From IMG/VR virus record IMGVR_UViG_2648501400_000008: 11,941 bases of DNA; one strand, written 5' to 3'. Made by a program: the position numbers and the translations under genes. Numbering within the stretch: position 1 is the stretch's first letter; each line of letters opens with the position of its first letter. Positions 8,203-11,941 of this stretch are shown here, piece by piece. The notes beneath the pieces are model-generated. The model did no database searches. It was given only the letters and a program-made list of their open reading frames with translations, and was not told where the DNA came from. The DNA is from a virus. Its lineage: Duplodnaviria > Heunggongvirae > Uroviricota > Caudoviricetes.

Positions 8203-9144
8203 ATGAGCACTAAATTAACCGGCTATGTATGGGATGGTTGCGCTGCGTCAGGCATGAAATTATCCAGCGTGGCAATTATGGCCCGCCTGGCTGATTTCAG
8301 TAATGACGAAGGTGTGTGCTGGCCATCAATTGAAACCATTGCCCGCCAGATTGGCGCGGGGATGAGTACCGTCAGAACGGCTATCGCACGGCTGGAAGCA
8401 GAAGGCTGGTTAACGCGTAAGGCGCGTCGCCAGGGTAACCGCAATGCGTCGAATGTTTATCAGCTTAACGTTGCGAAGCTTCAGGCAGCGGCATTTTCTC
8501 AACTGTCAGATTCTGACCCGTCAAAATCTGACGCATCAAAATCTGACCCGTCAAAATTTGATGCGTCGAAATCTGGCAAAAAAGCGGGTTTTCACCCGTC
8601 AGAATCTGGCGGGGATCCGTCAGTAAAATCAAAACATGATCCGTCAGATAAAAAACCTTCTCGTCCGGACGCTTCGCAACCGGACACGCAGACGGCTGAA
8701 CAGGATTTTTTAACTCGCCATCCTGATGCGGTTGTATTCAGCCCTAAAAAGCGCCAGTGGGGAACGCAGGATGATTTGACCTGCGCACAGTGGCTCTGGA
8801 AAAAAATCATTGCCCTGTACGAGCAGGCCGCCGAATGTGACGGCGAGGTGGTTCGTCCCAAAGAACCGAACTGGACAGCCTGGGCAAACGAAATTCGCCT
8901 GATGTGTGTGCAGGATGGTCGTACTCACAAACAAATCTGCGAGATGTACAGCCGCGTCAGCCGCGATCCGTTCTGGTGCCGTAACGTGCTCAGCCCGTCG
9001 AAGCTGCGGGAAAAATGGGATGAGCTTTCCCTGCGCTTATCGCCGTCCATCAGCACATACACAGAAAAACGCGAAGACCCGTATTTCAAATCCAGTTACG
9101 ACAACGTGGACTACAGCCAGATCCCGGCAGGATTCAGGGGGTGA
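8203..9144 (+). CDS. Lambda O-like replication initiator (313 aa)
   Basis: N-terminal winged-HTH-like segment (…CWPSIETIARQIGAGMSTVRTAIARLEAEGWL…), a repeat-rich linker, and a C-terminus (…QWGTQDDLTCAQWLWKKI…NWTAWANEIRLMCVQDGRTHKQICEMYSRVSRDPFWCRNVLSPSKLREKWDEL) that matches the lambda O C-terminal domain as I recall it. GAGG ribosome-binding site 6 nt upstream. Confidence 0.85.
   Translation: MSTKLTGYVWDGCAASGMKLSSVAIMARLADFSNDEGVCWPSIETIARQIGAGMSTVRTAIARLEAEGWLTRKARRQGNRNASNVYQLNVAKLQAAAFSQLSDSDPSKSDASKSDPSKFDASKSGKKAGFHPSESGGDPSVKSKHDPSDKKPSRPDASQPDTQTAEQDFLTRHPDAVVFSPKKRQWGTQDDLTCAQWLWKKIIALYEQAAECDGEVVRPKEPNWTAWANEIRLMCVQDGRTHKQICEMYSRVSRDPFWCRNVLSPSKLREKWDELSLRLSPSISTYTEKREDPYFKSSYDNVDYSQIPAGFRG
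8503..8580. repeat. Tandem about-15-bp direct repeats (candidate replication-origin iterons) inside the O-like gene
   Basis: Consecutive units TCAAAATCTGACGCA / TCAAAATCTGACCCG / TCAAAATTTGATGCG / TCGAAATCTGGCAAA plus a diverged flanking copy, followed by more degenerate copies and an A/T-rich stretch (8620-8657). They encode the SKSD-repeat linker. Confidence 0.5.
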
Positions 9145-9146
9145 GC

Positions 9147-9635
9147 ATGAGTCTTTTGAATGACGTTCAGAAATTCATTGAAGCCCATCCGGGGTGTACT
9201 TCCGGAGACATTGCGGATGCTTTTGCAGGTTACTCACGGCAGCGCGTTCTGCAGTCTGCAAGCAAGTTACGTCAGAGTGGGCGTGTGGCTCACCGTTGTG
9301 AAGGAGATACACGCAGACATTTCCCGCGCCTGACTGAGAGAGCGCAGGAGCCGGAACCACAACCAGTTCGTGAAACCAGACCTGTGCGCAATTTCTATGT
9401 CGGCACTAACGATCCCCGGGTGATTTTGTGCCTGACCCGCCAGGCGGAAGAACTGGAGTCCAGGGGCTTATACCGTCGTGCTGCAACGGTGTGGATGGCG
9501 GCATTCCGTGAAAGCCACTCCCAGCCAGAACGAAACAATTTTCTGGCGCGTCGTGAACGGTGTTTACGGAAAAGCAGTAAGCGGGCTGCATCAGGTGAAG
9601 AGTGGTATCTCTCAGGGAATTACGTGGGGGCTTAA
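9147..9635 (+). CDS. PerC-family-like putative transcriptional regulator (162 aa from ATG 9147)
   Basis: AGGGGG ribosome-binding site 6 nt upstream of the ATG at 9147 (the ORF track uses the GTG at 9141). The C-terminal AEELESRGLYRRAATVWMAAF resembles the PerC/Pch motif as I recall it; the N-terminal part looks like a winged helix. Confidence 0.55.
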   Translation: MSLLNDVQKFIEAHPGCTSGDIADAFAGYSRQRVLQSASKLRQSGRVAHRCEGDTRRHFPRLTERAQEPEPQPVRETRPVRNFYVGTNDPRVILCLTRQAEELESRGLYRRAATVWMAAFRESHSQPERNNFLARRERCLRKSSKRAASGEEWYLSGNYVGA

Positions 9636-11016: not shown

Positions 11017-11826
11017 ATGAATAATCTGATGGTCATTGATGGTATTGAAGTTCGTCGTGATGCTTATGGGCGTTACAGCCTGAACGATCTGCATCGCGCA
11101 GCAGTAGCATCTGGTGCAAATGCCAGAACCAAGGAGCCAGGAAAGTTTCTTTCCAGCCAACAAACTGTTGAACTTGTTCATGAATTGACCAACACCCAGA
11201 ATTTGGGTGTTGACCCGGTGAGTGTGATTCATGGGGGAAATGAACGGGGAACTTATGTCTGCAAGGAACTGGTGTATGCCTATGCAATGTGGATCAGCCC
11301 GCCATTCCATCTGAAGGTGATCCGTACTTTCGACATGGTAACCAGCGCACCGGAAAAATTATCCGGGCAGGCTGCTGACAAGATGCAGGCTGGTGTGATT
11401 CTGCTGGACTTTATGCGTCGGGAATTAAACCTGTCTAACTCATCTGTGCTTGGGGCTTGTCAGAAACTCCAGGAGGCTGTTGGCTTACCGAATCTGGCTC
11501 CGCGCTATGCAATTGATGCTCCTGCCGATGCACCCGATGGCTCAAGTCGCCCTACGCTGTCACTGAGTGCACTGCTGAAGCAGTATGGTATCCGCCTGAC
11601 GGCTAATCAGGCATATCACCAGATGGTGAAGCTGGGGATCGTCGAGCAGCGCGAACGATACAGCCGTACCGCGATTAACAACATCAAAAAATTCTGGTCG
11701 CTGACAGCGAAAGGCTGCATGTTCGGCAAGAACATCACCAGTCCCGCAAATCCGCGCGAGACGCAGCCGCATTTCTTCGAATCCCGATTCCCTGAGCTGT
11801 TAAAGCTGCTCGATACCGTTCATTGA
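11017..11826 (+). CDS. KilA-N domain protein (Roi/antirepressor-like, 269 aa from ATG 11017)
   Basis: AAGGAG ribosome-binding site at 11002-11007, 9 nt before the ATG at 11017. The N-terminus (MNNLMVIDGIEVRRDAYGRYSLNDLHRA … GTYVCKELVYAYAMWISPPFHLKV) is KilA-N-like. Confidence 0.75.
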   Translation: MNNLMVIDGIEVRRDAYGRYSLNDLHRAAVASGANARTKEPGKFLSSQQTVELVHELTNTQNLGVDPVSVIHGGNERGTYVCKELVYAYAMWISPPFHLKVIRTFDMVTSAPEKLSGQAADKMQAGVILLDFMRRELNLSNSSVLGACQKLQEAVGLPNLAPRYAIDAPADAPDGSSRPTLSLSALLKQYGIRLTANQAYHQMVKLGIVEQRERYSRTAINNIKKFWSLTAKGCMFGKNITSPANPRETQPHFFESRFPELLKLLDTVH

Positions 11827-11833
11827 GGTGACC

Positions 11834-11941
11834 GTGAGAGCATTACTGACCCCTGAAATTGCCCCGCGTATGGGGATCGTATTGTTCAGACCCGGTTCAG
11901 AGCTGATGCCCCTGTTTATGCCTGTCTCTTATACACAAATC
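11834..11941 (+). CDS. Partial ORF (5' end only), unknown function, running into a transposon-like end
   Basis: GAGG at 11825-11828 then GTG at 11834; the open frame VRALLTPEIAPRMGIVLFRPGSELMPLFMPVSYTQI continues to the window edge without a stop. Confidence 0.25.
   Translation, partial: MRALLTPEIAPRMGIVLFRPGSELMPLFMPVSYTQI
11922..11941. mobile_element. Tn5/IS50-like terminal inverted repeat (transposon end or library-adapter artefact) at the window edge
   Basis: CTGTCTCTTATACACAAATC matches 17 of 19 positions of both the Tn5 mosaic end (CTGTCTCTTATACACATCT) and the IS50 outside end (CTGACTCTTATACACAAGT), oriented with the element body to the right, beyond the window. Confidence 0.35.

Follow-up and report, generated by a model that had tools for sequence, protein, structure and literature searches.

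The right end of the window (the whole 11,941-nt stretch of DNA that was analysed) is the genuine left end of the insertion sequence ISEc13, inserted in an accessory gene of a lambdoid Escherichia coli prophage, and we put the probability of the whole explanation, i.e., an ISEc13 insertion in a DUF968 gene together with a contig break at the repeat, at roughly 0.97. An exact-protein look-up with the KilA-N protein of the window identified the window as the entire contig JHSW01000081.1 (11,941 bp; assembly GCA_001266175.1), a complete short-read contig whose right end lies 20 nt inside ISEc13. In the best explanation, ISEc13, an element of the IS50 subgroup of the IS4 family, entered codon 30 of DUF968 in the same orientation as the gene, between the KilA-N gene and the gene for the Q antiterminator, and duplicated the 8-bp target GTTTATGC in doing so. 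The transposition was probably of the cut-and-paste type, to judge by homology to Tn5, on whose model cut-and-paste through hairpin intermediates is expected. The event itself is ordinary, being one more copy of a catalogued insertion sequence, and the points of wider use are the target motif and the adapter mimicry only. Features of the window and of its junctions are listed in Table 1.

Table 1. Positions of the main features in the window (position 1 is its first base).
Feature	Position	Strand	Remarks
ISEc23 end (IS66 family, tnpA-proximal, GTAAGCG...)	1..100, exact terminus about 98-100	-	100% identity to multicopy ISEc23 ends
KilA-N domain gene, intact	11017..11826	+	Pfam KilA-N 6.8e-22; PGAP annotation of relatives agrees
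5' 88 nt (29 codons + 1 nt) of DUF968 gene (YdfU-type, HNH-like), GTG start	11834..11921	+	Truncated by the insertion
CCCCT, left half of the target consensus	11909..11913	+	AGGGG half on the partner contig
8-bp target GTTTATGC, left copy of the target-site duplication	11914..11921	+	Second copy after the ISEc13 right end on JHSW01000055.1
First 20 nt of ISEc13, transposase-proximal, IS50-outside-end-like terminal inverted repeat CTGTCTCTTATACACAAATC	11922..11941	+	20/20 identity; element continues beyond the window

The window ends with ...GAGCTGATGCCCCTGTTTATGC followed directly by CTGTCTCTTATACACAAATC. Bases 11922-11940, CTGTCTCTTATACACAAAT, agree at 17 of 19 positions (two mismatches) with the Tn5 mosaic end (ME) CTGTCTCTTATACACATCT and, likewise at 17 of 19 with two mismatches, with the Tn5 outside end (OE) CTGACTCTTATACACAAGT. 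The oligonucleotide table of PMC3347997 confirms both reference sequences, ME and OE. The match points out of the window, at whose extreme end it lies, and 200 shuffles of the window yielded no ME-like or OE-like matches. Bases 11922-11941 agree at 20 of 20 positions with the left ends of all canonical ISEc13 copies that were inspected (the copy in IMG/VR contig L004 and eight copies annotated by PGAP), and CTGTCTCTTATACACAAATC carries the residues C1, T2, T9, C13, A14, A16 and T19 of the end consensus of the IS50 subgroup. An earlier note on this DNA had described the outward-facing 17/19 match of the last bases to a Tn5 end, which is correct for both ME and OE, and had called the end Tn5/IS50-like; the likeness stands, while the element is ISEc13 and not IS50 or Tn5 itself. 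The range that the note gave for the feature, 11828-11941, is too wide on its left side, as the element begins at 11922 and positions 11828-11921 hold an intergenic spacer and the first 88 nt of DUF968. A perfect 11-bp hairpin, CACAAATCCCC-ACCC-GGGGATTTGTG, is located at nt 12-37 of ISEc13 (6925-6950 of L004), and overlaps the left terminal repeat in its inner part, with the window holding just the first 9 nt of the hairpin (11933-11941). A variant element, described below, retains a hairpin at this position with a different loop (GAATCC).

The last 942 bases of the window align over most of their length with 2,122 chromosomal records of E. coli and with 45 phage records, and every alignment listed ends at query base 922, i.e., at window position 11921. 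Beyond this position the uninterrupted gene reads AGGGGCGTG...; for example, the uninterrupted relative in strain L3Cip3 reads on as AGGGGCGTGTCC..., the body of a 329-aa DUF968 gene. The ME-like sequence starts exactly where native prophage sequence ends, and such an abrupt junction alone fits both transposition and tagmentation. For this very genome, both junctions, the duplication and the empty site are documented. Contig JHSW01000055.1, from the same assembly (GCA_001266175.1), opens with precisely the final 100 nt of ISEc13 (100/100 identity), including the C-terminus of the ISEc13 transposase, and continues with a second copy of GTTTATGC, with AGGGGCGTG... and with the remaining 301 codons of DUF968, followed by a 113-aa Q, two small genes, a holin and a lysozyme. 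The 301-aa remainder, whose initial Met lies within the target sequence, has the accession WP_052906757.1 and is encoded by JHSW01000055.1. Joining 2,000 nt of flank from the window to 2,000 nt of flank from the partner contig, minus one copy of the duplicate, gives a sequence that is identical at 4000 of 4000 positions to the uninterrupted prophage of GCA_040253905.1. The same 8-bp duplication, GTTTATGC, is present in L004 and L061.

Three observations can be held against the ISEc13 reading. The window holds no more than 20 nt of the element, which leaves slight room for a truncated or rearranged copy; the repeat is entered by 20 nt here versus about 100 nt at the other two boundaries of the assembly; and the junction occurs in none of the 5,426 complete RefSeq E. 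coli genomes, in which both orientations were searched. The full structure rests on draft assemblies plus one NCTC assembly (L061), which was found through the fusion open reading frame described below. The central stretch of about 1,430 nt of this genome's own ISEc13 copy lies outside the assembled sequence at both junctions in GCA_001266175.1 and is presumably intact.

The structure of the element itself is known from complete copies. A scan of IMG/VR with a 25-mer across the junction returned four contigs, one of which, L002, is an adapter artefact; the other three read ...CTGTCTCTTATACACAAATCCCCACCCGGGGATTTGTG..., with bases 17-20 as in the window. L004 runs through a complete 1,550-bp element to the right end AGATCTGATCAAGAGACAG, then GTTTATGC and then AGGGGCGTG, i.e., a simple insertion between direct repeats of 8 bp. 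This same-site element is 100% identical over 1,550 bp to copies that PGAP names 'IS4-like element ISEc13 family transposase', and canonical copies of ISEc13 are also 100% identical to each other. About 30 copies are found in E. coli O127:H6 EPEC E2348/69, and 874 of 5,426 genomes carry full-length copies. The transposase (WP_000244358.1) is a protein of 457 aa with the Pfam domains Tnp_DNA_bind and DDE_Tnp_1, and Dimer_Tnp_Tn5 scores 24.1 bits, under its gathering cut-off of 26.7; residues 6-453 align with the crystallised Tn5 transposase in the PDB (E = 6e-84). In L004 it is encoded by a single unframeshifted 457-aa DDE open reading frame with the Y-2-R-3-E-6-K signature ...YERRWLIEEYHKAWK..., as read in same-site copies and not in the copy of this genome. 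Members of the IS50 subgroup measure 1350-1550 bp, have the ends CW------Y---CA-A--W- and make an 8-9-bp duplication (Table 1 of PMC2266710), and ISEc13 fits this subgroup by its size of 1,550 bp, its end consensus and its duplication. The duplication is 8 bp long in six of eight ISEc13 genome copies and in further IMG/VR copies, and 9 bp in one copy. The full same-site copies and the partner contig bear out the proposal in the earlier note of a real IS4/IS50-family insertion in the gene after KilA-N. Of what the note had expected beyond the window, the transposase gene, the second inverted repeat and a target duplication are all present, the last of these being 8 bp long instead of 9 bp. End identity, both junctions, the duplication, the empty site, the structure of the element and recurrent use of the site (see below) have thus all been observed.

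Both ends of the contig are insertion sequence boundaries, and the contig is the unique DNA between two repeats. Positions 1-100 match the ends of the multicopy ISEc23 at 100% identity, with 8,369 places in E. coli genomes, and homology to the prophage integrase begins at position 98. The ISEc23 end adjoins the last 29 codons of the prophage tyrosine integrase gene, the remainder of which lies outside the window. The insertion is situated downstream of the presumed catalytic motif of the integrase, ...LGH...VY, as read from an alignment. This second insertion near the integrase 3' end shows that erosion of the prophage by insertion sequences is under way, which falls short of proof of inactivation. 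Next to the integrase end lies a gene for a 531-aa deaminase-domain protein (337-1932, minus strand), which in near-identical prophages is annotated as 'anti-phage dCTP deaminase' and, going by that annotation, is a putative prophage-borne defence gene. At the right end, the contig presumably stops because ISEc13 is multicopy and the assembler was unable to cross the repeat, and many draft contigs in IMG/VR likewise end 77-201 nt inside ISEc13. The assembly reaches about 100 nt into the repeat at two boundaries (window 1-100 and L054 1-100) versus 20 nt at the left end of ISEc13. The shorter reach at this adapter-like end may come from the way in which adapter trimming or screening treats junction reads; contig JHTH01000112.1 of a sister assembly (L062) reaches 96 nt into a variant element whose end is just as ME-like.

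The interrupted gene is a DUF968 (YdfU-type) gene of the nin region and not a late regulator. Its GTG start at 11834 is preceded by a GAGG Shine-Dalgarno sequence, and the reading frame runs as VRALLTPEIAPRMGIVLFRPGSELMPLFMPVSYTQI to the edge of the window without a stop, as the earlier note had it. The note had also suggested a disruption of the late-regulatory region; Q and the late genes follow intact. The intact 329-aa homologue, encoded between KilA-N and Q, matches Pfam DUF968 at 6.8e-81 and HNHc_6 weakly. The start of DUF968 and the adjoining insertion sequence together form a 48-aa fusion open reading frame, which is on record as EFR18203.1 and as other hypothetical proteins (in DEC2B, 2362-75 and others). 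At the other end of the element, the stop codon of the transposase is followed after 15 nt by an in-frame ATG that comes from the duplicated target and opens the remaining 301 codons of DUF968, and this 301-codon frame is called by gene callers in every carrier. The replication/nin region of the window also encodes a PerC-family protein (9141-9635; Pfam PerC 7.9e-9), named yfdN in relatives; PerC homologues are regulators in EPEC.

To examine the target of ISEc13, the flanks of its ends in eight annotated genome copies and in IMG/VR contigs were compiled, a non-random sample made up of prophage contigs and best hits. CCCCT is found at -13 to -9 in nine of 25 distinct left flanks exactly and in 15 with at most one mismatch, and AGGGG at +9 to +13 in seven of 21 distinct right flanks exactly and in 12 with at most one mismatch. 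Relative to a uniform-base expectation this corresponds to a binomial P < 1e-16, and the motif signal peaks sharply at that offset. Judging from these flanks, the target of ISEc13 is a symmetric CCCCT-N8-AGGGG, of which the 8 bp are duplicated; no description of a target preference for ISEc13 was found in the searchable literature, passing mentions of the element aside. The DUF968 site, CCCCT-GTTTATGC-AGGGG, matches the consensus perfectly; an uninterrupted relative has just two such sites in 19.8 kb, this one included. The other, at window positions 2193-2210 (CCCCTCATTTTAGAGGGG) in the early-left region, carries no insertion sequence.

At the DUF968 site, 10 further loci have the left junction and 11 have the right junction, and the carriers differ in background and in element. 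The prophage in the window has canonical ISEc13, a 113-aa Q and flanks that are 100% identical over 4 kb to the empty-site prophage. Carriers in DEC-type strains also have canonical ISEc13, with flanks 97% identical to those of the window and a 250-aa Q, and a third background, with no more than 129 nt in common upstream, is represented by L003. In L019 the same 8 bp hold the element the other way round. The element in L061 and L062 is a variant of 1,564 bp with 95.7% identity, and its left end reads ...ACACAAGTCCCCGAATCCGGGG. The opposite-orientation and variant-element events are unable to share an origin with the others, and so at least three independent insertions have taken place at this site. 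A further contig, L043 (IMGVR_UViG_2648501110_000014; 4,071 bp), has inward-facing ISEc13 right ends at both of its ends, one at the DUF968 site and one at a second recurrent phage site, CCCCT-CCGCACAG-GGGG, which is also used in L027, L028, L035 and L042. Because it is bounded by two ISEc13 right ends, two copies of ISEc13 bracket the DUF968-Q segment in one prophage.

Two other origins of the terminal 20 nt need to be weighed, of which the earlier note had raised one, Nextera-type adapter read-through. Under this reading the 20 nt are a Nextera/Tn5 tagmentation adapter with two sequencing errors, and the first 16 nt are indeed identical to the mosaic end, at a contig end and after an abrupt junction. 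Genuine read-through exists in public contigs as well: L002 (IMGVR_UViG_3300003474_000008), a chance match that served as a control, ends in real Nextera sequence (...CTGTCTCTTATACACATCTCCGAGCCCACGAGAC..., positions 5253-5296). The adapter reading was nevertheless ruled out, with a residual probability close to nil. Bases 17-20 of the end are AATC, as in ISEc13, versus TCTC or TCTG in the adapter, so that in place of an exact CTGTCTCTTATACACATCT followed by CCGAGCCCACGAGAC or GACGCTGCCGACGA the window has mismatches at positions 17-18. The same junction recurs in at least 10 contigs of other assemblies, where it continues past the left end as CCCACCCGGGG and runs on into the transposase gene, and the complementary right junction, with its target duplication, is on another contig of GCA_001266175.1. 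An end of Tn5 or IS50 proper, or of an engineered Tn5 derivative such as that of a laboratory transposon mutant, would account for the 17/19 match to OE and ME, and the right end of ISEc13 is identical to the IS50 inside end, CTGTCTCTTGATCAGATCT. IS50 and Tn5 proper as well as a laboratory mini-Tn5 were also rejected, and their probability is just as negligible: the OE match is inexact against 20/20 for ISEc13, the duplication is 8 bp and not 9, full copies have no resistance gene between their ends, and the partner contig carries the C-terminus of the ISEc13 transposase, a protein that is only a homologue of the Tn5 transposase.

With the end assigned to ISEc13, what the insertion means for the prophage and how the recurrence arose are each subject to an alternative. 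The earlier note had it that the insertion would lock the prophage as defective, which could come about by polarity on Q or by loss of an essential function. DUF968 is cut after 29 codons, the early-right operon is now 1.55 kb from Q, and ISEc23 also sits inside the 3' end of the integrase gene, a sign of ongoing decay driven by insertion sequences. A polar reduction of Q expression is possible. Inactivation nonetheless appears unlikely, and nothing was found in support of a locked prophage: the transposase gene points the same way as the early-right operon, a consensus scan predicted no terminator-like sites inside ISEc13 on the transposase strand, the duplicated ATG reopens the DUF968 frame just past the transposase stop, and Q and the lysis genes (holin, lysozyme) are intact downstream, as are the terminase genes in L061. 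As nin deletions in lambda show, lytic growth in the laboratory does not depend on genes in this position. As for the recurrence, one ancestral insertion could have spread by descent and prophage recombination in place of repeated insertion at a hot spot, given that lambdoid prophages are mosaic and recombine, that the canonical copies are 100% identical, and that several carriers (the DEC strains and 2362-75) are probably related. This we regard as highly improbable in view of the inverted orientation in L019 and the 95.7% variant (1,564 bp) in L061 and L062, all at the same 8 bp. The flanks of the window point the same way, being 100% identical to the empty-site prophage versus 97% to the DEC-type carriers with their different Q, and the DUF968 site fits a consensus found at unrelated loci.

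Repeated insertion at the DUF968 site invites a more speculative proposal, to which we give little credence at present. The strong symmetric preference of ISEc13 and its close variants may make codons 24-33 of the widespread prophage gene DUF968 a recurrent hot spot, where, in the common orientation, the duplicated ATG and the close transposase stop recreate a translatable remainder, so that the insertion would be tolerated, or might even be selected as a modulator of read-through into Q, rather than acting as a simple knockout.

The insertion is of wider use in a few respects. The left end of ISEc13 contains 16 consecutive bases of the Nextera mosaic end, and because of these shared bases, trimmers, contamination screens and human readers can mistake a mobile-element junction for an adapter or clip true junction reads. 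The target motif, together with at least three independent insertions at the same 8 bp, is useful for the prediction of insertion sites, and the recurrent site in DUF968 helps to interpret prophage decay in EPEC-type strains rich in insertion sequences.

Compared with known systems, the insertion is closest to ISEc13 itself: the end of the window is the left end of this element, ends, size and 8-bp duplication are shared, and only the location, in a prophage DUF968 gene, is specific. ISEc13 resembles IS50 and Tn5 in having an outside-end-like repeat by the 5' end of the transposase gene and an inside-end-like repeat with GATC sites at its 3' end, and in a transposase that is homologous over its full length (E = 6e-84) and carries the YREK signature. 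It differs from them in its left end, which agrees with the exact 19-bp OE CTGACTCTTATACACAAGT at only 17 of 19 positions, and in its duplication, which is 8 bp here and in most ISEc13 copies as against 9 bp in Tn5; IS50 is 1,534 bp long versus 1,550 bp for ISEc13. The target differs as well: the consensus for Tn5, reportedly described by Goryshin and colleagues in 1998 (cited in PMC2266710), is weak, A-GNTYWRANC-T, and ISEc13 has its preference in the 5 bp that border the duplication on either side (CCCCT/AGGGG). The Nextera mosaic-end adapter shares 16 nt and an abrupt junction at a contig end with the sequence seen here, but differs at bases 17-18, and no index adapter follows. IS231A, from a different subgroup of the IS4 family, has the target GGG-N5-CCC, and with other symmetric-target elements of that family it has in common with ISEc13 a palindromic, G/C-rich motif that is symmetric around the staggered cut, although motif and spacing are unlike the CCCCT-N8-AGGGG of ISEc13.
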